A DNA stretch of 64,000 nt from an uncultured Candidatus Saccharibacteria bacterium (lineage in GTDB: Bacteria > Patescibacteriota > Minisyncoccia > Phycocordibacterales > Phycocordibacteraceae). Under the pieces are notes generated by a model, which was given only the letters and a program-made list of their open reading frames with translations, did not search any database and had not been told where the DNA came from. Of the stretch, positions 2,316 to 54,367 are shown in pieces (the stretch's first letter is position 1; each line of letters begins with the position of its first letter). The stretch is taken from the NCBI GenBank assembly GCA_964652615.1, contig CAZZAT010000001.1:153886-217885 (forward strand), given 5' to 3'. A program made the position numbers and the translations under genes.

Positions 2316-3369
2316 ATACCGCCGCGATATCTTCTATCGCACCGGCTGGAACGTCTTGTTCTTGCAGATGGGCTTTGCGCTTGTGTTAGTCGCACTTATG
2401 CTCGTCTCCCTCTCGTATCTGTATAACGAAATTATTGAAGGCCTTATTCACGCCATAACGCAAAGCGTTGCTTCTGGCGTAGACCCTTCAAGTGACGGCG
2501 CCTTCATTGCTTCCAGTCTTGAGTACGAGAAGCAAAAGAATATGGTGCTCACCGCTGCAGGCATTTTAATCGCAGCTGCAGTCTTCTCATGGCTCATAAC
2601 TGCTATGGCGCTTCGACCAACTCGTCTTGCGCTTCAAAGCCAGAAACAGTTCGTTGGAAACATCGCACACGAACTGCGCACTCCTCTTGCCATCATTAAG
2701 ACGAATACGGAAGTAACGCTCTTTAACGAACATCTAGGAACTGATACTAAGCAATCGCTTGCCTCAAACCTTGAAGAGCTCGACCGTATTTCAGATATTA
2801 TTAACAACCTTCTCTCAATGAACACACTTCTCGATCCGGGGAAGATGGTGTTCACAAACGTTGATCTCGAACCAGTCATACAGGGCGTCATGCATTCGCT
2901 TGAAGATCTTGCTAAGCAAAAAAGAATAGCGCTTACCTCTGCTTCAGAGGGGTACCAAACCGTGCGCGGTAACACAGTGGCACTTGAGCAAATCATCATG
3001 AATATCGTGAAGAATGCCGTCAACTACACGCGCGATGGTGGATCAGTCGACATCCAAACACGTCCTGACTATCACGGACATGTAGAAATTGCGGTGCGTG
3101 ATACCGGTATTGGCATACCAGAAAAGGATCTCGAACACGTGTTTGAACCTTTCTACCGAGGCGACAAAGCAAGAAATCGTGCATCTGGAGGAGGATCAGG
3201 ACTTGGGCTTGCAATCGTTGGAGAGCTCGTGCGCTCGCATAAAGGCCATATACGCATCACCAGCATTGAAGGCGCGGGCACGACCGTATTCGTGACGCTT
3301 CCTTGCGGAAAGGAAGAGGTAAAGAAGAAAGGGTCTGCGCCGAAAGAATCATCGGTAGACTACGCTTAA
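2209..3369 (+). CDS. sensor histidine kinase (2 TM, HisKA AHELRTPL H-box, HATPase_c); true start probably downstream of 2209 (e.g. near 2368)
   Basis: H-box NIAHELRTPLAII, N-box/G-boxes (NAVNYTRDGG, DTGIGIP, GGSGLGLAIV). The ORF overlaps the regulator by about 107 nt, so the start is uncertain. Confidence 0.85.
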   Translation: MSSMSTSKTSDKSSILKRALAYLKPFVESATGFARRYRRDIFYRTGWNVLFLQMGFALVLVALMLVSLSYLYNEIIEGLIHAITQSVASGVDPSSDGAFIASSLEYEKQKNMVLTAAGILIAAAVFSWLITAMALRPTRLALQSQKQFVGNIAHELRTPLAIIKTNTEVTLFNEHLGTDTKQSLASNLEELDRISDIINNLLSMNTLLDPGKMVFTNVDLEPVIQGVMHSLEDLAKQKRIALTSASEGYQTVRGNTVALEQIIMNIVKNAVNYTRDGGSVDIQTRPDYHGHVEIAVRDTGIGIPEKDLEHVFEPFYRGDKARNRASGGGSGLGLAIVGELVRSHKGHIRITSIEGAGTTVFVTLPCGKEEVKKKGSAPKESSVDYA

Positions 3370-3478
3370 ACTTCATCTTCACTTCACGGGGCGTGCGCTA
3401 TTGTGCCCTTGTGTACGCGGGTTCTCTAGTTCTTTCGGTGCCCTTTGCGCGGGGTGGCCAGAGCAGAACGGCTGTTTC

Positions 3479-5134
3479 CTAGGAAGCAGTCGTTGTGCTT
3501 TGGTCCTTTGCTGCTTCGAGAAACGCCGTGAAAAGCGGATGCGGAGCAAGCGGCCGCGCAATGAGCTCGGGATGAAACTGGGCTCCCACGAAAAACGGGT
3601 GTGTGTCTTTTGGCAATTCTGCTATTTCCATGAGAATGCCATCGGGAGATTTTCCCGAAAACACCATGCCGGCTGCCTCAATACGATCAATGTATTCTGG
3701 GTTCACCTCATAGCGGTGGCGATGCCGCTCTTCTATCTCCTCTTTGCCATACGCAGCCTCTGCAATAGTTCCTTTCGTGAGAACTGCAGGATAGACGCCA
3801 AGACGCATCGTGCCTCCGTAGTTTCCTTTGGCGATAAGTTCCTTTTGTTCTGGCATCACGTCAATCACGGGATGCTCAGCTTGCGGGTTAATTTCTACCG
3901 TGTGAGCACCAGAAAGACCCGCCATGTGTCGTGCGCATTCTATGACCATAAGTTGCATACCGTAGCAAAGACCAAAATAAGGAATCTTGTTTTCTCGCAC
4001 ATATCGAATTGCATGTATTTTTCCTTCAATACCCGTCTCGCCGAATCCGCCCGGCACCAAGATGCCGTCATATTCTGAAAGCCGCTCAAGCCCCTTCCCT
4101 TCTTGAAAGTCTTTTGCATTTATCCAGTCAAGCGCCACTTTTGCTCCTGTATGTGCTGCAGAGAATTTCAAAGCTTCAATGACCGAAAGATATGCGTCAG
4201 AAAGAACGAAATCACCCGTATCAAAATACTTTCCCACAATGCCGATCTTCACTGACGTCGATGCCGTCTTTGTCTTCTCTACAAACGCTTCCCATTTGGA
4301 CATTTCAGCACTCTTTCCCTCTGGAAGTCCGAGAGCTTTGGTAAGTATGTCGCCAAAGCGATCTTTCTCAAGATTAAGCGGGACGTCATAAATGCTTTCA
4401 ACATCAGGAGCAGAAATGATGCGGTCGGCACGAACAGATACAGACACCGCAAGCTTTTCCTTACGCTTCTCATCAAGTGCGACGCTTGCACGCGCAATAA
4501 GGAAATCAGGCTGTATGCCATACGCATTGAGTTGGCGTACAGCATTTTGGGTCGGCTTTGTTTTCATTTCTCCGAGCGTGCCTGGTGTTGGAAGGTAGGA
4601 GACCATACCGAAAATGACATCATCTGGCTGTTCCATTTTCAATACACGTGCTGCTTCTATGAAAAGAGCATTTTGGAAATCCCCTACCGTACCCCCTATT
4701 TCAACAACCGTTATCTTGCTCCCGTTATACGAAGCCGCCGCCTTGAGGCGGCGGAGAATCTCATCGCGCACGTGCGGGATAGCTTCGACGCACTTGCCTC
4801 CGTAGCGAAGCGCTCGTTCGTTTTCAATCACCGTCTGATAGACCATGCCGCCAGTCATATAATCTTCAGGTCCAAGATCACGATTCAAGAATCGCTCGTA
4901 ATTCCCCATGTCCTGATCAGTTTCAAGGCCGCTTCGAAGCACAAAGACTTCCCCGTGTTCAGTAGGATTCATAGTGCCTGCGTCTACGTTCAAATAGGGA
5001 TCTATCTTCACAAGATTCACCTCGTACCCGCGACTCTTTAAAATAAGGCCCATGGAAGAGACTGCGATTCCCTTGCCGACGCCGCTCATTACCCCGCCTA
5101 TGACGAATATGTATTTATGTCCATTCGTATCCAT
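3479..5134 (-). CDS. pyrG: CTP synthase
   Basis: N-terminal KYIFVIGGVMSGVGKGI synthetase domain and C-terminal glutamine amidotransferase (GLCYGMQ, HPE). 551 aa. Confidence 0.95.
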   Translation of the reverse strand: MDTNGHKYIFVIGGVMSGVGKGIAVSSMGLILKSRGYEVNLVKIDPYLNVDAGTMNPTEHGEVFVLRSGLETDQDMGNYERFLNRDLGPEDYMTGGMVYQTVIENERALRYGGKCVEAIPHVRDEILRRLKAAASYNGSKITVVEIGGTVGDFQNALFIEAARVLKMEQPDDVIFGMVSYLPTPGTLGEMKTKPTQNAVRQLNAYGIQPDFLIARASVALDEKRKEKLAVSVSVRADRIISAPDVESIYDVPLNLEKDRFGDILTKALGLPEGKSAEMSKWEAFVEKTKTASTSVKIGIVGKYFDTGDFVLSDAYLSVIEALKFSAAHTGAKVALDWINAKDFQEGKGLERLSEYDGILVPGGFGETGIEGKIHAIRYVRENKIPYFGLCYGMQLMVIECARHMAGLSGAHTVEINPQAEHPVIDVMPEQKELIAKGNYGGTMRLGVYPAVLTKGTIAEAAYGKEEIEERHRHRYEVNPEYIDRIEAAGMVFSGKSPDGILMEIAELPKDTHPFFVGAQFHPELIARPLAPHPLFTAFLEAAKDQSTTTAS

Positions 5135-21758: not shown

Positions 21759-23582
21759 ATGACTGCACACAAACACATGATTGCGAAGACCGCGGCGCTT
21801 GTCGCAGGCTTCGCACTCGTTGCTTCTTCGTTCGTCGCGTTCACGCCTTCTGCGCGCGCTGCGACGATCGATGAGCTTCAGGCGCAGATACAGGTACTTC
21901 TCGCACAGATCGCTTCCCTCAACGGAGGCGCATCTGCAGGAAGCTACACGTACACGCGCGATCTTACGCTCGGCGCCTCTGGTGCTGACGTTACCGCTCT
22001 CCAGAGCTGGCTTATTAGCAAGGGATACTCTATCCCAGCAGGTGCAACTGGCTACTTCGGTGCCCAGACGCAGTCTGCTCTTGCCGCCTACCAGGCAGCA
22101 AACGGTATCGCTCCAGCAGCAGGTTACTTTGGCCCGGTTACCCGCGCTAAGGTAAATGCTCAAGGCACCGTAACCATCCCAGACACCGGCGGTTCTACCT
22201 CGGGTCTTGGAAAGGGCGAAGCTTCTATCGAACGCCTTCGCGCTTCTAGCGGCGAAGAGGACGAAGTAGCTGAAGGCAGCGCTGCCGAAGTTGCTGAATT
22301 CGAGTTCCGCGTAAAGGATGGTGACATCCGCGTTGAGCGCCTCGATCTCACTTTCGAACCGGCTTCCGGAAACGATGAAGACGAGCCATGGAAGACCTTC
22401 GACACCATCACCATCCTTGATGCTAAGGGAAAGACTCTTGTTTCCAAGGACGTCTCTGATGAAGATGATTGGCTCGAAGACGATGAGCCATACGTATTCC
22501 GCTTCACCGGCCTTAACTATGTCGTGAAGAAGGGCGATACGGGAACGCTCGTTGTAGAGGCAGAGGTACAGAACTCGGTTGACGGCACGAACGACGGCGA
22601 GTCTTGGACGATCTACATCGACAGTAACGACCTCCGCGCTATCGACGGCGAAGGTATCGACCAGTACGCTGGCAACAGCAACCAGAGCGTTACGTTCGAT
22701 GTTGTTGCAGAGGGCGAGGGCGAGGAACTGAAGGTCCGCTCTTCAAGCGACAACCCAAGCTCCACGATTCTTAAAGTCGAGAACAACAAGCGTTCTTCTT
22801 GGTACACCATCTTCGCATTCGACATCGAAGCTGAAGATGCTGATATCGAAATCGAGACCGCAACCACCACAATTCAGGTTAGCTCGAACGACTTTGTTTC
22901 AGGCGTCGTGAACGACCTTGAGCTCGTCATCGATGGCAAGACTATCGACGACTGGTCATGGGTTTCCGGTGCTAACTCGGATACCGCAGTTATCGCGTTC
23001 GATGTTGACGGCGACGTCACTATCGACGAAGGTGACCGCGTTACTGCCGAGCTTCGTGCGCGCTTCAACGCCACGAGCACCAGCTCGACCATCAAGGCGA
23101 GCGTTGCATCAGGCGCAATTGAAGGCGAGGGCGCAGATGATGTGTTCAGCACAGGAGCAGCTTCCGGCAACACGCATACGCTTAGCCTCTCGACTGCTCG
23201 AATCTCGAACGTCAGCTGGACCAAGTCGGTTACTGGCGACAGCACCGATGGTACGCTCGACTTCTTCTTCACTGTTACGGCGGTAGATGAAGACTTCGAT
23301 CTCCTTGCTGCCGAGATTATCGACAGCAACACGATGTTCTTCGGAGCAACGACTACTCCGGTAACTCTCTCGCAAGATGGCTCCTTGAGCCGCGTATCAG
23401 GCGACAGCGTAACGGCGATTGGCACCACTGGCTTCACCATCTCTGAAGGTGATACCACCCGCTTCCGCGTCCGCTACGTACTCGCTGACGCTGGCACCTA
23501 CGAAGTCACTATCGAGTCGATTGCCGGCATCGAAATTGACGACGAAGATCAGCTCTCCCCAACAGTTATCCTTGCAAGCTAA
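21759..23582 (+). CDS. secreted acidic cell-surface protein with peptidoglycan-binding (PG_binding_1-like) domain and long repetitive beta-rich region
   Basis: Signal peptide. DLTLGASGADVTALQSWLISKGY...TQSALAAYQAANGI. D/E/T/S-rich remainder. Confidence 0.65.
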   Translation: MTAHKHMIAKTAALVAGFALVASSFVAFTPSARAATIDELQAQIQVLLAQIASLNGGASAGSYTYTRDLTLGASGADVTALQSWLISKGYSIPAGATGYFGAQTQSALAAYQAANGIAPAAGYFGPVTRAKVNAQGTVTIPDTGGSTSGLGKGEASIERLRASSGEEDEVAEGSAAEVAEFEFRVKDGDIRVERLDLTFEPASGNDEDEPWKTFDTITILDAKGKTLVSKDVSDEDDWLEDDEPYVFRFTGLNYVVKKGDTGTLVVEAEVQNSVDGTNDGESWTIYIDSNDLRAIDGEGIDQYAGNSNQSVTFDVVAEGEGEELKVRSSSDNPSSTILKVENNKRSSWYTIFAFDIEAEDADIEIETATTTIQVSSNDFVSGVVNDLELVIDGKTIDDWSWVSGANSDTAVIAFDVDGDVTIDEGDRVTAELRARFNATSTSSTIKASVASGAIEGEGADDVFSTGAASGNTHTLSLSTARISNVSWTKSVTGDSTDGTLDFFFTVTAVDEDFDLLAAEIIDSNTMFFGATTTPVTLSQDGSLSRVSGDSVTAIGTTGFTISEGDTTRFRVRYVLADAGTYEVTIESIAGIEIDDEDQLSPTVILAS

Positions 23583-23612
23583 CAGCTGAAAGGAATCCCA
23601 AAAGGAGAAAAG

Positions 23613-23645
23613 AAAAACCACCCCGTACGGGGTGGTTTTTCTTTT
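23613..23645 (+). terminator. rho-independent terminator (aaaaaccaccccgtacggggtggttttt)
   Basis: 10-bp stem plus T-run immediately after the 21759..23582 stop. Confidence 0.55.
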
Positions 23646-23647
23646 AC

Positions 23648-23673
23648 GTGTTGCGGGGGCCGGAATCGAACCG
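23648..23673. repeat. 26-bp direct repeat of the 3' end of the intron-containing tRNA(CAU) (identical to 25943..25968); attR-like island boundary
   Basis: gtgttgcgggggccggaatcgaaccg is identical at both sites. It covers trailer, discriminator, acceptor 3' strand and T-arm. Confidence 0.75.
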
Positions 23674-23700
23674 AATATTCTGCGGCCTATTCCCTATAGC

Positions 23701-24405
23701 CTAATATTGACGAAAGCTTCTCAAGTGCTGGTTCGCGAGAATTGCAAGCCTTGAGCCAGACGTATCATCAAGTTCGTGGCCAAGAGAAGGATATTCTATC
23801 CACGCACGTACGGCGGCGTTCTCCGCAGACGAGAAAATCTTCTGTTGAGACTCCAACGGAACGATGGTGTCACGACCGCCATGAAGAAACACGAACGAGC
23901 GCTTGAATGTCTTGATCGCGGACAAAAGAATATCCGTGTCGGGCAGGGTGTTTAGCAACGGCTTCGTCGTCTCAGGATTTCGCCCGCAACCGCTTCCTGC
24001 GAACACTACCGTATCCATGGCACAAAGCACGGACGGAAGACCGAGGAGGGTCGTCCCTCCGAACGAAAGCGCGATGCTGTGCAGACGCGTGCTTTCGGGA
24101 AGTAAACGCTTCCTTGCGTAATCGAAGGCTCGAGCGACATCTTCGCACTCCTGCTCGAATGTCTTTCCCTCGAACTGCTCTTTCTTATTTTCGGCATCCA
24201 AACGACCCGTGTGTATACAAATGACATGGTGATCGTGCCGCAGAAGTTCGACAAGTTCATTGTCCCAGGAGTCTCCTGACGGAATATGCCCCCCGTACAA
24301 CCCCTTCAAAACAAGCACCGCATCAGCTTCTTCTTGTGCAGCGGGATAGTGGTAGACGCTTGTTTTGGTTCCTTTGAAAGGAGACTCCAGGGTATGCTCG
24401 CTCAT
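23701..24405 (-). CDS. alpha/beta-hydrolase fold protein (dienelactone-hydrolase-like)
   Basis: ALSFGG nucleophile-elbow-like motif, HGGRD, C-terminal GHELDD. Confidence 0.65.
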   Translation of the reverse strand: MSEHTLESPFKGTKTSVYHYPAAQEEADAVLVLKGLYGGHIPSGDSWDNELVELLRHDHHVICIHTGRLDAENKKEQFEGKTFEQECEDVARAFDYARKRLLPESTRLHSIALSFGGTTLLGLPSVLCAMDTVVFAGSGCGRNPETTKPLLNTLPDTDILLSAIKTFKRSFVFLHGGRDTIVPLESQQKIFSSAENAAVRAWIEYPSLGHELDDTSGSRLAILANQHLRSFRQY

Positions 24406-24455
24406 AAAAGAATAGTACCCTCATCGCTTGCAGAAGCAATGAGGGTATCAGGCAA

Positions 24456-25364
24456 TCAGCGGAACTCCGGCGGAATCTCCGTATCGACGAAGCTAATGTC
24501 GTTCCCAACCTGATCTCGCGCCGCGACTGCGAAGCGATACGTCGTCGGAGGAAACTTCGCCACTGTCCACCCCGGCAGACCGTGGTGATACTCCCTGAAG
24601 GCGTTCGCCACTTTTGTGTATTCGAACGGGAAATAGAGACAGAAGCTCCTCGTCAGGCGAAGGAGCAGGTACCGCCCTATCATGCCATCGAAGACGTGGC
24701 TGTATTGGGATTCTACAGTGGTACCAGGCTCAGCGCCCGCAATGTGCTTCGAGAAAAGCGGAAGACTGAGTCCCTTCCTTATCTCTGAGTCGCTATAGGT
24801 TCCTTGAAAATCCCGGTGCACAACGCGTCGAATCTCAAGGTTTCCGTCAATTTCCGCGAGCGTATTCTGCCCATGAAGCTCGGGAAGCAGACCCCGCTTC
24901 GAAACGAGTGCGACCCAGGAATCCAAGAGCGGTCCTGCGACGCGTTCAACGAAATACTCCATCGGCAACCGCCCTCCGTGCATCCTGACGATTTGCACGG
25001 CCAACGGCTCGTCCTCGGACGCATGAGGGTCGTGCGCGTACAACGAATGGTACGGCATGAGTACATGGCCGCCCGCGTGATGCGGATAGGGAACGACTTC
25101 TCGATAGACGATTCCAGAACCTTCGTAGTCGCCGCCTTGAATGACGACTCCTAGCGATTCGGGAAGGAACGCATACCGGTCCGGATGCAGATTTGCATCG
25201 CAAAATGCCCGCAGATCGGAACAGATGGCGATGCTATGCTCGATCGAACTTCTTTGAAGCCTTCGAACGAAGCGGAAATGCTTCTTGTCGAGATCGGTCT
25301 TGATATAAACCCGGAACGCATCTTCTGTCAGAAGCGTCCGGGTCGAGCTCGTCGGCTGCGCCAA
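24456..25364 (-). CDS. IucA/IucC-family (siderophore synthetase C-terminal / FhuF-like) protein; TTG start; possibly the 3' part of a gene split by an in-frame stop
   Basis: ELHGQNTLAEIDGNLEIRRVVHRDFQG resembles the IucA/IucC C-terminal core. At 302 aa it is about half the size of a full NIS synthetase. Confidence 0.4.
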   Translation of the reverse strand: MAQPTSSTRTLLTEDAFRVYIKTDLDKKHFRFVRRLQRSSIEHSIAICSDLRAFCDANLHPDRYAFLPESLGVVIQGGDYEGSGIVYREVVPYPHHAGGHVLMPYHSLYAHDPHASEDEPLAVQIVRMHGGRLPMEYFVERVAGPLLDSWVALVSKRGLLPELHGQNTLAEIDGNLEIRRVVHRDFQGTYSDSEIRKGLSLPLFSKHIAGAEPGTTVESQYSHVFDGMIGRYLLLRLTRSFCLYFPFEYTKVANAFREYHHGLPGWTVAKFPPTTYRFAVAARDQVGNDISFVDTEIPPEFR

Positions 25365-25367
25365 GAC

Positions 25368-25694
25368 TTATCCATGGACGATAAGTCCTCGCCGGTCGAC
25401 GTCAGGATGCCAGAAGAACCGGCGCTTCCCTGCTTCTATCGACCAGTTCTCAAGAGCATCCGACGGTGCTGATCTATGGACCGTACACTCGCTATCGGAA
25501 AGTAACGTATACGGAAGCACCACATGGGCGATTTTCCCTTGCGGGTCGAAGACGGGATTCACTTCCGAATAGTCAGTAAAGCTGCCCTTCGTGTCGTTAA
25601 GATGCCGTTCGCCGTAGACGGTCGAAACCAACGGATCGTTCACCAACAATTGTGCAAGTTTCATTCCAACCTCCTCTGTTGGGGTCCGGTGCAA
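25368..25694 (-). CDS. hypothetical protein, in frame with and separated by a single TAA from the downstream IucA/IucC-like ORF
   Basis: Same reading frame as 24456..25364 with a one-codon gap after the TAA stop. Looks like a nonsense-split pseudogene. Confidence 0.35.
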   Translation of the reverse strand: MHRTPTEEVGMKLAQLLVNDPLVSTVYGERHLNDTKGSFTDYSEVNPVFDPQGKIAHVVLPYTLLSDSECTVHRSAPSDALENWSIEAGKRRFFWHPDVDRRGLIVHG

Positions 25695-25945
25695 TAATCA
25701 CACAAACTTTCTTTTATGTCTACTCCATTCCAGAGAGCAAATACCAACAGCAAGAAAACAACCAAGAGGGCAATCGGAAAAGAACCGCGATTTTCGATGA
25801 TTTGGTCGGTGAGCACCCCGGCCAGAATACATAGCTAGAAAGTCCAACTTGCGTTGGACTTTCTAGCTTTTTAGAGACGAACAGGTCTGGCGGACTGGAA
25901 CCAAAATTAGGCGCTTTAAGCCAGCCAGCTGGTCTCTGAACCGTG

Positions 25946-26261
25946 TTGCGGGGGCCGGAATCGAACCGGCGTCTGGAGGTTCTTTTACACCTTTTGTTTC
26001 CAAAAGGAATGGACTATCCCATGATCCCTGTAGGATCCTCCCATTATAGTCTCTGAACCTTACTCAATATGCATTGAGTCTTGGCTGCTGATTGCCGAAT
26101 CTTCCTGTTTTTTTGCATTCGCGCCCATCCTTTCAGATCACGCTGTAGCACAGAAAGCTCTAACGGTATTCCAGCAATTTAGAGAGTTTTTCCACTACCC
26201 GTTACCGGATAGGGTCACGTATTCACATGAGCCTCCCGAGGTACCTCTCCTCTACCCCGCT
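25946..26261 (-). tRNA. initiator-like tRNA-Met(CAU) interrupted by a group I intron after anticodon position 36 (exon1 26261..26227, exon2 25981..25946)
   Basis: Exon 1 is AGCGGGG-TA-GAGG-AGAGGTA-CCTC-G-GGAGG-CTCAT. Exon 2 is AA-CCTCC-AGAC-GCCGG-TTCGATT-CCGGC-CCCCGCA-A. Spliced, this is a canonical 71-nt tRNA with loop CUCAUAA, A11:U24, a 1:72 mismatch and GG in the D-loop. Confidence 0.7.
25982..26226 (-). ncRNA. group I intron (245 nt) in tRNA anticodon loop; P, Q, R, S elements present; no ORF
   Basis: Intron starts GUG (guide sequence complementary to the exon CAU) and ends in G. P-like AAATTGCTGGAA (26169-26180 rc), Q-like AATCAGCAGC (26084-26093 rc), R-like GTTCAGAGACTA (26047-26058 rc), S-like GGGATAGTCC (26011-26020 rc). 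Same insertion site as the Azoarcus tRNA-Ile intron. Confidence 0.75.
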
Positions 26262-26382: not shown

Positions 26383-26772
26383 ATGCCTCTGAAAGATCAA
26401 AACAAAAGAAAGCTATATCACGCGAAATACATGAAGGAAGTGTGGTATCCGAAAAATAAAAAGAAACATATCGGATATGTAAAGAGGAATAAGCTTCGAG
26501 TTGCAGAATTTATTGATGAATACAAACGAAAGCGAGCATGTATGGATTGTGGGTTCTCTGGAGAAAAATTCCCTTTTGTTTTGGATTTTGATCATATTAA
26601 AGGTAAACCCTCAAAGAGGTTCAGTATTGGAAGTTGGTCACGGTCAGTATTGAGCATTCAAGCAATTGAACAAGAAATCAGAAAGTGTGAGATAGTATGC
26701 GCAAACTGCCATCGCGTACGCACCTTTTCAAAATCCAAAAGGAGGACTACTAAATCTCCCCGAATTCCTTAA
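26383..26772 (+). CDS. HNH endonuclease (free-standing, AT-rich)
   Basis: CMDCG...LDFDHIKGK...VCANCHRVRT, a classic HNH/zinc-finger core. The gene is markedly AT-rich and divergent from the intron-containing tRNA 120 bp away. Confidence 0.8.
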   Translation: MPLKDQNKRKLYHAKYMKEVWYPKNKKKHIGYVKRNKLRVAEFIDEYKRKRACMDCGFSGEKFPFVLDFDHIKGKPSKRFSIGSWSRSVLSIQAIEQEIRKCEIVCANCHRVRTFSKSKRRTTKSPRIP

Positions 26773-27361
26773 AGACTCTTTCGTATTTCTGAATCGTACG
26801 GTACGCAATGTTGTCATCAAGTTTGAAATCAGAGCCGCGGTGCGCTATGTCATTTCGCACTTTGTGCGCTTCCCATGCTTCTTCTAAGGAAGCGAACTTT
26901 GCACCCTTCAATCGGTCCCCCACTGAAGCGCCTTCGTATCCTGCCTGTCGCAACACTTCTTCAAGCATAATGTCTGCTTCAATAATCGCTTGACGCCAAT
27001 CGCTTTCTTGGGCGCTTTCAATAAGCTGCCGTATATGAGCCCAGCGTGAATGATCTTTCGTCTTTTCAGCAACATCAGGAGCAAGCGTTGAGTACTTTTC
27101 CTTGTCCTCTGCTCCCTTAATTTGCCCTATGCGCATGGTTGCATAAGTGATGAGGCCGAGCGCAATGAGAACGAACAAGAAAGAAATAATGCCGAGGATA
27201 CCCCACGCATGAGAGAACCAGCCCATAAAAGCTTCAAAGAGAGACATCGCAGGCAAGGAAGGTGTCGTGCCTGTTGAAACGGAAAACTGCCCGCCGTAGA
27301 TGAGACGGAAGAAATATTCGAGATTCAAGTATCGTATTGGTCCACCGTCTGCGCCTTCCAT
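26750..27361 (-). CDS. hypothetical membrane protein
   Basis: One or two TM segments. The C-terminal half is predicted soluble. No motif recognised. Convergent 23-nt overlap with the HNH gene. Confidence 0.45.
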   Translation of the reverse strand: MEGADGGPIRYLNLEYFFRLIYGGQFSVSTGTTPSLPAMSLFEAFMGWFSHAWGILGIISFLFVLIALGLITYATMRIGQIKGAEDKEKYSTLAPDVAEKTKDHSRWAHIRQLIESAQESDWRQAIIEADIMLEEVLRQAGYEGASVGDRLKGAKFASLEEAWEAHKVRNDIAHRGSDFKLDDNIAYRTIQKYERVFKEFGEI

Positions 27362-53899: not shown

Positions 53900-54306
53900 G
53901 GGGGTGACCGGCTTTGACGGTCTGTTCTTTGAGAGACGTGCGACGCGGCGGAAGTTTGCTGTCCGCCTACAAACGCAAACAAACATACTTGCAAAGAACA
54001 CTCTTGCAAGCGTGAAGTCTCCATACTTCGGTATGTCTGATTTCGCGTTCGCTTACGCGCGCGCCTAACGGCCCTTCGCCTAAGCGACATCCAGCCAGCT
54101 GAGATCTCATAGTCTCTGGTTTCTGGGTGTAATTACCTATGAGATGGACACTCTGTTTTCCCGTGCAGAGGTCGAGATAAGGGATACGATAGGAGCGGTT
54201 TCGTGCCGGTTCCTCGCGCCCTATCGGAATGCCTAGCCGGCACTACGCGTCGTAGACTCGCTCTCAAAGACGGATTCGGACTGGAGTTCGATTCTCCACA
54301 CCTCCA
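53900..54306 (+). ncRNA. ssrA: tmRNA (ssrA)
   Basis: 5' GGGGGTGACCGGCTTTGACGG (acceptor strand plus the GGNUUYGACGG box). 3' GGAG-TTCGATT-CTCCA T-arm followed by CACCTCC pairing the 5' GGGGGTG, then A-CA. About 407 nt, directly downstream of smpB. Tag ORF not confidently identified. Confidence 0.7.
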
Positions 54307-54367
54307 CAGCTATACTCATTTTGACTATACTCAAAATGACTGGAAATACCGCCTCTCAGGCGGTTTT

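Follow-up and report, generated by a model that had tools for sequence, protein, structure and literature searches.

The window (the whole stretch of 64 kb analysed here), part of a Paceibacteria genome of the candidate phyla radiation, carries a tRNA(CAU) gene on the minus strand at 25946-26261, which is composed of exon 1 (26227-26261), an intron (25982-26226) and exon 2 (25946-25981). The intron interrupts the tRNA between nt 36 and 37 and was matched by Rfam RF00028 at 25990-26237 with 64.7 bits, the gathering score being 50. ARAGORN missed tRNA(CAU) on the unspliced locus and accepted the 71-nt tRNA formed by joining exon 1 (26261-26227) to exon 2 (25981-25946). As indicated by both the RF00028 match and the canonical spliced tRNA, the insert is a group I intron located in the anticodon loop of the tRNA. 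The spliced tRNA was identical at 71 of 71 nt to the intron-less tRNA-Met(cat) of the relative L004, and the presence of A11:U24 and of an A1/A72 mismatch suggests that it is of the initiator type. The adjoining gene encodes a conserved 203-aa membrane protein (hyp203) with a weak HEPN-like match and is not a recombinase. More than 90 loci share the conserved block tRNA-hyp203-gatA-gatC-ligA. On its 3' side the tRNA has a highly variable flank, with 431 ORFs falling into 299 clusters.

The 3' end of this tRNA occurs twice. Repeat finding delimited an exact direct repeat of 27 nt at 23647-23673 and 25942-25968, with 2295 nt from start to start, which is one base longer than the 26 bp given in the initial annotation. 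The 26-mer had two exact copies in the 64 kb, both on the plus strand (23648-23673 and 25943-25968), and was matched in 0 of 100 dinucleotide shuffles. No further copy was found in the window when up to 3 mismatches were allowed, so the 26-mer is not a dispersed repeat of many copies there. Of the 5' T-stem strand the repeat includes 3 of 5 nt; it then runs through the T-loop, the 3' T-stem strand and the acceptor 3' strand to the discriminator and 4 nt of trailer. Read on the minus strand, the proximal copy (25942-25968) is the functional tRNA 3' end (25946-25968) plus the 4-nt trailer, and the distal, att-like copy (23647-23673) is a displaced partial 3' end of 23 nt of tRNA plus the same 4 nt. 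The partial copy lies in direct orientation on the 3' side of the minus-strand tRNA, 2.3 kb downstream. The earlier description of two copies in the same orientation, the right one belonging to an intron-containing tRNA and the partial one on its 3' side, was confirmed. An independent assembly, Logan contig L001 (SRR15237804), was 100% identical to window positions 23616-25981 and covers both repeat copies, both junctions and the in-frame TAA codon described below.

A perfect 38-nt palindromic terminator hairpin (23608-23645) directly follows the displaced tRNA fragment. It is common to the convergent PG-binding gene (21759-23582, plus strand) and to the operon between the repeats (minus strand). 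Exact-protein look-ups found neither the PG-binding nor the HNH gene product on record. The distal copy is followed by CACGTAAAAG and then by the terminator, as at genuine tRNAs in L004, L006, L114 and L046, where the layout is tRNA-CACGTAA-terminator, and BLAST identity to L006 and L004 extended 10-14 nt past the repeat into the distal trailer. On the inner side of the distal copy, a 16-nt stretch (23674-23689, minus strand) resembles the conserved 'X1 arm' that flanks partial tRNA copies in other Paceibacteria. Positions 23674-23690 were identical to GACTTTCTACGGCCTAG at 12 of 17 nt, and an nhmmer profile of X1 scored 22.6 bits over 39 nt at the left copy and 9.7 bits over 24 nt at the right copy. 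At the proximal end, a terminator-like hairpin (25833-25868, minus strand) lies inside the islet about 75 nt downstream of the tRNA, and the spacer between them (25869-25941, minus strand) is unique to the source genome. About 25 relatives have another spacer downstream of the tRNA, termed type B, for which no Rfam family and no conserved RNA structure were found. The spacer at 25869-25941 was considered as a diverged type B on the basis of a MAFFT alignment and rejected, as a type B profile found nothing in the window at E=10. With the window spacer unrelated to type B, membership of a shared element family would rest on the 16 nt and the shared core.

The sequence between the copies contains two cargo genes, one IucA/IucC-like and one alpha/beta-hydrolase-like, and a doubtful 51-aa ORF. 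The hydrolase-like gene (23701-24405, minus strand) encodes 234 aa and in relatives (L002, L003, L123-L130) invariably occurs together with the IucA-like gene. Its family assignment in the initial annotation found weak support: the protein matched Hydrolase_4 at E=0.005, below the cut-off, and PDB alpha/beta hydrolases at E of about 0.002. A hairpin lies between the cargo genes (24416-24447, minus strand). The IucA/IucC-like gene (24456-25664, minus strand; 402 codons in relatives) is divided by one in-frame TAA (25368-25370, minus strand) into an N-terminal piece (25371-25664) and a C-terminal piece (24456-25364), with a TTG at 25364. The TAA and the TTG are as first described, and L001 has the same TAA codon. 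At this position Ser or Thr is found in intact homologues of 402 aa (TCG in L002). A single-base nonsense change accounts for the stop. A 302-aa product (P0002) is on record from 2 contigs. The HMM search agreed with the IucA/IucC assignment, with 30 bits for IucA_IucC (PF04183), above the cut-off of 25; the score for FhuF was 18.8 bits, below its cut-off. Homologues carry precomputed PF04183 assignments with or without PF06276. We counted the family among the NIS synthetases on PF04183 above the gathering score and an FhuF-type C-terminus, the latter sub-threshold. Full-length IucA/IucC proteins have ~580-620 aa; the present family, with 402 aa, does not have this full-length architecture. 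PDB and NCBIfam searches with the cargo proteins returned nothing except the weak alpha/beta-hydrolase matches, and the 402-aa family matched neither collection. The possible 51-aa membrane ORF (25661-25816, minus strand), the stop of which overlaps the IucA-like start (ATGA), had neither homologues nor a family match. A promoter-like site upstream of the IucA-like gene (25694-25722, minus strand) was recognised by consensus match. Since the ligase gene carries a nonsense mutation, the islet cargo is probably decaying.

The same two-gene cargo was found in relatives at other chromosomal sites, without repeats. Around the cargo in L002, L003 and L123-L130, the search for repeats and tRNA fragments found nothing except a complete upstream tRNA-Asn in L128 and L130. 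RNase J and rplT flank the module in L003, which is syntenic with window positions 58.5-62.7 kb; in the window, nothing lies at this point. Cargo identity to L003 was 76% and 62%, and that of housekeeping genes was 60-81%. The ligase and hydrolase-like genes are thus a widespread Paceibacteria module, and, as the gene order shows, this cargo is movable relative to the backbone. Relatives that carry the same genes without the repeat had been named beforehand as an observation that would speak against an islet, and such relatives do exist; as these copies occupy other positions, they mark the cargo as a common module and do not make the repeat meaningless. Composition was uninformative as a check: GC was 0.53 in the island and 0.51 in the window, and neither GC nor GC3 gave a signal of foreign origin.

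No recombinase was found in the islet, in agreement with the initial annotation. Phage_integrase (PF00589) matched none of the 67 ORFs of 110 aa or more in the window, and a known integrase fragment included as positive control in the same search was matched. As shown by tblastn with the L080 integrase, neither the islet nor the window contains an integrase remnant. A motif scan combined with tblastn over the window and 120 loci detected an integrase in L080 only; this tyrosine integrase (PF00589, E=2.7e-27) is encoded some 80 nt downstream of tRNA(CAU). L145, from another sample, has a complete tyrosine integrase of 238 aa at the same site. In the L080 genome, L030 bears a displaced copy with a native-type trailer, next to methylase and ATPase cargo. 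Homologues of the L080 integrase (P0110 and P0115, 58-60% identity) were located at other loci with no tRNA(CAU).

Displaced copies of the same tRNA end were present in at least 5 other Paceibacteria genomes, with boundaries within 3 nt of those in the window. These copies were sought with a fixed 23-mer as seed, in contigs seen as 8-kb pieces, so that integrases may lie at array ends. On three contigs both copies are seen, and they bracket different cargo that lacks an integrase. A second copy of the 23-nt tRNA end, in direct orientation, lay downstream of the tRNA at a distance of 1082 nt in L004, 1572 nt in L089 and 3307 nt in L037+L032; in L030/L080 the duplication is split over two contigs. 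In every case identity stopped 0-3 nt after ...CGAACCG. The cargo differed from case to case (HIT and a glycosyltransferase fragment; an unknown 292-aa protein; DUF6962, GDPD and FAD oxidase), and no integrase was found in the cargo between the duplicated ends. Degenerate copies with conserved flanking arms were detected in L118 (three copies), L043, L054, L075, L108, L111 and L022; for these and the L004 copy, 12 of 12 profile matches were direct and downstream of the tRNA. The 23-mer core matched only complete, unrelated tRNA genes in IMG/VR, with no attP-like site.

We consider it fairly probable that the 2295-bp unit, made up of one repeat copy and 23674-25941, is an integrase-less islet inserted site-specifically into the T-arm and 3' end of tRNA(CAU). 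Circular DNA bearing the last ~23-27 nt of the tRNA would have recombined with the chromosomal tRNA gene. The incoming copy would now complete the tRNA (25942-25968), and the original 3' end, with its own trailer and terminator attached, would have been displaced 2.3 kb downstream (23647-23673). The recombinase may have acted in trans or may since have been lost, and is likely to have been a tyrosine integrase of the type that related genomes carry at this site. We infer the insertion event, its direction and the enzyme from comparison of sequences; the native-type distal trailer, the recurrent duplication around unrelated cargo and the integrase at this position elsewhere all support insertion. 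A crossover in the T-stem belongs to a standard class of tRNA att sites, to which 1836 of 3919 Islander islands were assigned (PMC4383910). Against insertion stand the lack of a recombinase and of an integrase remnant in the 64 kb, the composition, which does not deviate, the spacer unrelated to type B, the arrangement in L060 described below and the homologues of the L080 integrase at other loci. Of the initial description as a decayed genomic islet, insertion is supported by the comparison with relatives; decay is not, as no integrase remnant was found, and the islet may never have encoded an integrase.

If the insertion occurred as proposed, the empty attB is predicted to read ...GGTGGTTTTTCTTTTACGTG-TTGCGGGGGCCGGAATCGAACCG-GCGTCTGGAGG... 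and the circular attP ...GGTCTCTGAACCGTG-TTGCGGGGGCCGGAATCGAACCG-AATATTCTGCGGCC... The comparative search for an empty site suggested in the initial annotation yielded no match to the junction pattern in genome or metagenome contigs, and neither a circular junction nor a strain free of the islet turned up; an occupancy-neutral control was also unmatched and the species is missing from the metagenome collection, so this negative result is uninformative. L060 was considered as an empty-site analogue and rejected, as a different gene, of 191 aa, separates the tRNA there from the orthologous terminator. In L060 the terminator follows the orthologous PG-binding gene, and the other gene and the tRNA come next with no partial copy, which indicates that gene turnover here does not always leave a repeat.

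The arrays in relatives raise the alternative, which we regard as unlikely, that the islet is a worn, outermost member of an undescribed Paceibacteria cassette system. A trans-acting recombinase encoded elsewhere would insert small integrase-less cassettes successively at the T-arm of this initiator-type tRNA, so that they stack head to tail. Each would end in a recombination module of ~200 nt derived from the tRNA 3' end, analogous to an integron cassette and not a decay product of self-sufficient islands. L118 has three such modules in succession about 2 kb apart. Each combines a pair of inverted T-arm-like motifs with a pseudo tRNA 3' end, a spacer containing GTACCG repeats and a terminator, and each separates 1-4 cargo genes, which are all co-oriented with the tRNA. 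Conservation of the module arms extends over 9 genomes or more, the spacer sequence is conserved without RNA structure, as expected of protein-binding DNA, cassettes of L089 and L118 share a homologous cargo gene (42% identity) and none of these cassettes has an integrase. However, the modules are linked to no recombinase, integrases at array ends are possible beyond the 8-kb pieces, and co-orientation may reflect the strong strand bias of these genomes. The window islet itself has the 16 nt of arm similarity only and no type B spacer. Repeated integration and decay would also yield arrays of partial tRNAs with orphaned cargo, as in tycheposon islands. We give a similarly small chance to the duplication being a by-product of non-site-specific recombination. 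Foreign Paceibacterium DNA with cargo downstream of its tRNA might have been taken up and joined by homologous recombination in the tRNA-gatCA-ligA block at one end and illegitimately in the resident T-stem at the other, or an intrachromosomal rearrangement might have had its breakpoint in the T-stem. The conserved block would provide a long homologous anchor, and the variable 3' flank, the cargo directly downstream of another tRNA (Asn) in L128, the backbone-like divergence of the cargo and the missing recombinase all agree with such a route. Random breakpoints would not, however, cluster within 3 nt in five independent genomes and leave a direct 3' fragment each time; moreover, integrases occupy the site and the boundary fits the standard integrase crossover class.

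It is very improbable that the partial copy arose by local duplication and is kept as RNA, as a tRNA-like 3' element that would act with the terminator in 3'-end processing or stabilisation of the cargo mRNA. Its position 27 nt after the hydrolase stop codon, directly before the terminator and on the transcribed strand, would suit this role, and in relatives the T-stem of degenerate copies is still partly compensated (TCCAG/ATGGA). Yet the matching 5' acceptor strand and a complete minihelix are both missing, ARAGORN and Rfam detected no tRNA-like gene at the copy, and its exactness, including the 4-nt trailer, points to recent origin and not to structural selection; the integrase-bearing case would also be left unexplained. 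An artefact of assembly or binning that joined two populations at a shared tRNA segment is hardly credible, even though the source is metagenomic and many co-occurring Paceibacteria share an identical 23-nt tRNA end. A chimeric join predicts one complete tRNA, not a complete and a truncated copy. The Logan assembly that reproduces window positions 23616-25981 exactly was built at k=31, a k-mer longer than the 27-nt repeat, and the same architecture occurs in unrelated assemblies.

The proposed site-specific insertion at tRNA(CAU) invites comparison of the islet with known systems. In the Islander tRNA-integrated genomic islands (Hudson, Lau & Williams 2015, PMC4383910), as in the islet, the ends are marked by a regenerated tDNA and a displaced direct 3' tDNA fragment, and the T-stem crossover is one of two common sublocations. 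The islet has its intact tDNA and fragment in the same replicon, a fragment of the 3' end and a recognised sublocation, but it contains no tyrosine integrase and would be rejected by the filters of Islander; it is 2.3 kb in length, with two-gene cargo only and no integration or mobility genes. Like a CIME (cis-mobilizable element; 2017 review, PMC5704250), it has retained attL and attR, att-like repeats at the tRNA 3' end, in the absence of integration and transfer genes. CIMEs arise from an ICE or IME by decay and can be mobilised through accretion with a functional element; relatives of the window genome show tandem accretion, and an integrase-bearing element uses this site in L080/L145. The islet differs in that it has no oriT and no remnant of conjugation, integrase or transfer genes. 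Patescibacteria are not known as ICE carriers. The feature is an ordinary one in kind, a CIME-like degenerate tRNA island, in an unusual lineage. The tycheposon-seeded genomic islands of Prochlorococcus (Hackl et al., bioRxiv 10.1101/2020.12.28.424599) also occur in a streamlined genome at particular tRNA genes including tRNA-Met(CAT), with successive integrations parted by partial tRNA copies, older partial tRNAs and orphaned metabolic cargo. Tycheposons differ in phylum and carry a tyrosine recombinase and a replication module, neither of which the islet has, and the conserved arms of Paceibacteria have no described counterpart. The likeness to integron cassettes is confined to the relatives, in which short, co-oriented, recombinase-less cassettes are stacked at a fixed anchor and each ends in a conserved module with inverted repeats. 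In contrast to integrons, the anchor is a tRNA gene with no IntI-type integrase and the module derives from the tRNA 3' end; the islet lacks most of the module, its distal end having no inverted-repeat module.

Patescibacteria have tiny genomes with few recognised mobile elements, and their exchange of accessory genes is poorly understood. Together with its counterparts in other genomes, the locus points to the tRNA(CAU) 3' end as a place where small metabolic and defence cargo has repeatedly entered genomes of this lineage, and it supplies a precise core of 23-27 nt and candidate integrases of the L080/L145 type. The tandem arrays with conserved arms in relatives are a more interesting lead than the islet of the window. 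For annotation, the locus flags an intron-bearing tRNA that is overlooked by standard tRNA finders and a pseudogenised ligase gene.

The 64-kb window contains exactly two copies of the 26-bp direct repeat described in the initial annotation (23648-23673 and 25943-25968); both are on the plus strand. The possibility that the 26-mer was a dispersed repeat was checked, and no further copies were found in the window even with up to three mismatches, nor any match in 100 dinucleotide-preserving shuffles (0/100). Exact identity extends to 27 nt (23647-23673 and 25942-25968, 2295 nt apart), comprising 23 nt of tRNA and 4 nt of trailer. The tRNA part consists of three bases of the 5' T-stem strand, the T-loop, the 3' T-stem strand, the acceptor 3' strand and the discriminator. 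ARAGORN called no tRNA at the right copy in the genomic sequence. Rfam located a group I intron on the minus strand at 25990-26237 (64.7 bits; gathering score 50), and reading of the sequence placed exon 1 at 26261-26227, ending in the anticodon CAU, the intron at 26226-25982 and exon 2 at 25981-25946, all on the minus strand. The joined exons formed a 71-nt cloverleaf that was accepted by ARAGORN as tRNA-Met(cat) and matched its counterpart in a related genome (L004), where the gene has no intron, at 71/71 positions. As had been proposed, the truncated copy is in direct orientation, on the downstream side of this minus-strand tRNA. An independently assembled Logan contig (L001; run SRR15237804, k=31) was identical to the window from 23616 to 25981 and thus reproduced both repeat copies, both junctions and the interior. 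A 27-nt repeat is too short to mislead a k=31 assembler.

Going away from the tRNA on the minus strand, the islet begins with a 73-nt spacer, followed by a terminator-like hairpin (25868-25833), a doubtful 51-aa ORF, the IucA/IucC-like gene (25664-24456), an intergenic hairpin, the 234-aa alpha/beta-hydrolase-like gene (24405-23701) and a 27-nt gap before the truncated tRNA copy. Beyond the copy, the islet shares a terminator with the convergent peptidoglycan-binding gene, a perfect palindrome of 38 nt (23645-23608). In HMM searches the C-terminal 302-aa fragment of the ligase-like gene matched PF04183 above threshold; the FhuF domain suggested with it matched weakly, and the hydrolase label of the 234-aa gene drew sub-threshold matches only. 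When both ligase-like fragments were joined as a database query, more than 100 proteins were recovered; nearly all are 401-406 aa long and align along the entire query. Their sources are Lloyd-, Wolfe- and Jorgensenbacteria, Minisyncoccota and other Paceibacteria. These homologues carry Ser or Thr at the position of the in-frame TAA (25370-25368), and the closest has TCG. The claimed split by one stop codon was borne out, and a single-base nonsense change explains it. The nonsense codon suggests that selection no longer maintains the cargo in this population. As first reported, no recombinase was present: a Pfam scan of the 67 window ORFs of at least 110 aa gave no Phage_integrase match, and only the integrase fragment included as positive control was matched.

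Displaced tRNA ends were also found in relatives. In the window the distal copy is followed by CACGTAAAAG and then the terminator. CACGTAA with an immediate terminator also lies behind the genuine tRNA(CAU) in four related loci (L004, L006, L114 and L046), and BLAST identity between these and the distal copy continues 10-14 nt past the repeat into the trailer. Because its trailer and terminator match genuine tRNA(CAU) loci, the distal copy looks like the original tRNA end, parted from its gene. The 23-nt tRNA end is duplicated in direct orientation on one contig in three other genomes. The copies are 1082 nt apart in L004, with a HIT protein and a glycosyltransferase fragment between them, 1572 nt apart in L089, with an unknown 292-aa protein, and 3307 nt apart in L037+L032 (a single contig), with DUF6962, a GDPD phosphodiesterase and an FAD oxidase. 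A fourth genome has its two copies on separate contigs (L030 and L080). In all four genomes, as in the window, identity breaks off 0-3 nt past ...CGAACCG, and no integrase genes were found inside the intervals between the duplicated ends. Degenerate copies with conserved flanking arms were found in L118 (three, about 2 kb apart), L043, L054, L075, L108, L111 and L022. The profile matches, including the L004 copy, were all direct and downstream of the tRNA (12/12). The 16 nt beside the distal copy of the window resemble one of these conserved arms (arm profile score 22.6 bits, versus 9.7 bits for the proximal copy).

Integrases do act at this tRNA. The L080 contig breaks off within a tyrosine recombinase gene (PF00589, E=2.7e-27) whose end lies about 80 nt downstream of the tRNA, and the displaced fragment of this genome, with a native-type trailer, lies on L030 beside genes for a DNA methylase and a large ATPase. 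In L145, a contig from a different sample, the integrase is complete (238 aa) and is placed in the same way next to the same intron-containing tRNA. Together L080 and L145 show that a self-sufficient, integrase-bearing form of the element exists. The most economical account is that a circle of about 2.3 kb carrying the 27-nt core integrated into the tRNA; the crossover would have been made within the T-arm by a tyrosine recombinase that was provided in trans or lost later. The T-arm region is one of two common sublocations for tRNA-targeting integrases (Islander, PMC4383910).

Several further checks bear on this account. GC content of the interior gave no composition signal for foreign origin (0.53, versus 0.51 for the window). 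The initial annotation had also asked whether relatives carry the same genes without the repeat, and they do, at other loci. L003 shares synteny with window 58.5-62.7 kb (60-81% amino-acid identity for NDK, RNase J, L20, L35 and IF3). Between its RNase J and rplT genes it has a NUDIX gene and the ligase-hydrolase pair; in the window only a short spacer separates these two genes. The pair shares 76% and 62% identity with the window copy. Other positions of the pair are between ychF and a flavodoxin-like gene (L002), inside a purine operon (guaA, purH, pair, purE, purM, purC, purB; L123-L125), after an HNH gene (L126) and directly after tRNA-Asn (L128). No repeats or tRNA(CAU) fragments flank it at any of these loci. 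The cargo is not tied to the tRNA(CAU) locus, which counts towards an insertion here. The empty-site and circular junctions had no match in genome or metagenome collections, and the control pattern for either state was also absent from the metagenomes, so that these negatives say nothing for or against an insertion. An att-flanked, integrase-less islet is nevertheless the best supported reading: the repeat, its orientation and the missing recombinase stand as observed, and we regard integration itself as moderately probable.

As a kind of object, such an islet is already known. It has the tDNA-plus-fragment signature of the Islander definition and lacks the integrase that this definition includes (PMC4383910). 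Its nearest parallel in biology is seen in Prochlorococcus, in islands beside tRNA genes where partial tRNAs stand between successive tycheposon integrations and more partial tRNAs and cargo remain from older events (bioRxiv 10.1101/2020.12.28.424599); tycheposon hallmark genes are absent from the islet. A limited literature search found no description of such islets in Patescibacteria, which does not prove their absence.

What merits further work is the recurrent version in related genomes, which forms arrays and has conserved arms. A conserved sequence of about 60-75 nt (CACGGTTGTGACGCCAGGAACCAGTACCG...GTACAGTACCG) with a terminator directly follows tRNA(CAU) and its partial copies in about 25 Paceibacteria loci (for example L102 644-704, L049 4862-4922 and L118 2293-2353). 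It had no Rfam family, and no conserved RNA fold was found in the spacer of the relatives' units. In L118-type units the spacer is conserved in sequence (CACGGTTGTGA, with repeated GTACCG), and conservation of this kind without an RNA fold would suit protein-binding DNA. A MAFFT alignment had given the impression that the window spacer was a relative of this type B spacer; this was rejected, as the type B profile found nothing in the window. The tRNA-proximal 277 nt of the islet showed no similarity to any other locus. L118 (1-8000; MAG BP5.bin107) has three degenerate tRNA(CAU) 3' ends behind the tRNA, at 2217, 3891 and 5995. Each is preceded by two inverted T-arm-like motifs and followed by the conserved spacer and terminator. 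They divide co-oriented cargo into groups: ASCH-like, peptidase-like and pyrophosphatase-like genes; a gene for an unknown 298-aa protein; an ABC-F ATPase; and a gene for an unknown 373-aa protein. Small units that lack an integrase and have the conserved arms thus also occur in chains, as in L118.

The cargo homologues, together with more than 90 loci sharing the gene order of the window, place it in Paceibacteria (Patescibacteria); the closest genome retrieved had about 65-75% protein identity. The order tRNA, 203-aa membrane protein, gatA, gatC, ligA was the same in these more than 90 loci. There is deep conservation of gene order 5' of the tRNA and almost none 3' of it: the 5 kb on that side yielded 431 ORFs from about 90 loci, and these fell into 299 clusters. 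L060 has the orthologous peptidoglycan-binding gene and terminator, then an unrelated 191-aa gene, then the tRNA, with no partial tRNA copy at the locus; it was rejected as an empty site, the 191-aa gene being another occupant of the same slot. The 203-aa membrane protein (26750-27361), the invariant 5' neighbour of the tRNA in the Paceibacteria loci, has a C-terminal Rx4H (HEPN-like) motif; its one Pfam match, to RiboL-PSP-HEPN (E=0.0047), is sub-threshold, and it has no NCBIfam assignment. The window also encodes a tmRNA (53900-54309) with an unusually long predicted tag peptide (AKNTLASVKSPYFGMSDFAFAYARA).

The purine-operon context in L123-L125 hints that the short (402-aa) IucA/IucC branch has a role unrelated to siderophores. 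The L128 and L129 assemblies agree at 100% identity along 7.4 kb, IucA-like gene included, and diverge exactly at the tRNA-Asn 3' end (L128 5763-5835, same position in L129), beyond which one continues into housekeeping genes and the other into a type I restriction-modification system. This tRNA end is another that acts as a strain-level breakpoint.

Among 73 loci with identical exon 2, 42 had no intron, 19 had the group I intron of the window (after nt 36), and in 12 a second group I intron stood before nt 34 (L097: 48.3 bits). Contig L001 runs up to 25981 (exon 2, first base) and L131, another Logan contig of SRR15237804, up to 26227 (exon 1, last base). Since both stop exactly at the exon/intron boundaries, the assembly graph has a branch point at each junction, as would be expected in this sample from coexisting intron-containing and intron-less alleles or from spliced RNA reads. 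Upstream of the tRNA and its intron (25982-26226), the window has an HNH-like 129-aa ORF (26383-26772) of low GC (0.38), which occurs only alongside the first intron (9/19). In L097 (second intron; locus 3081-4122) and L145 (first intron), this spot encodes a 233-aa HTH protein that has a LAGLIDADG-like motif. Both proteins look like free-standing homing endonucleases travelling with the introns.
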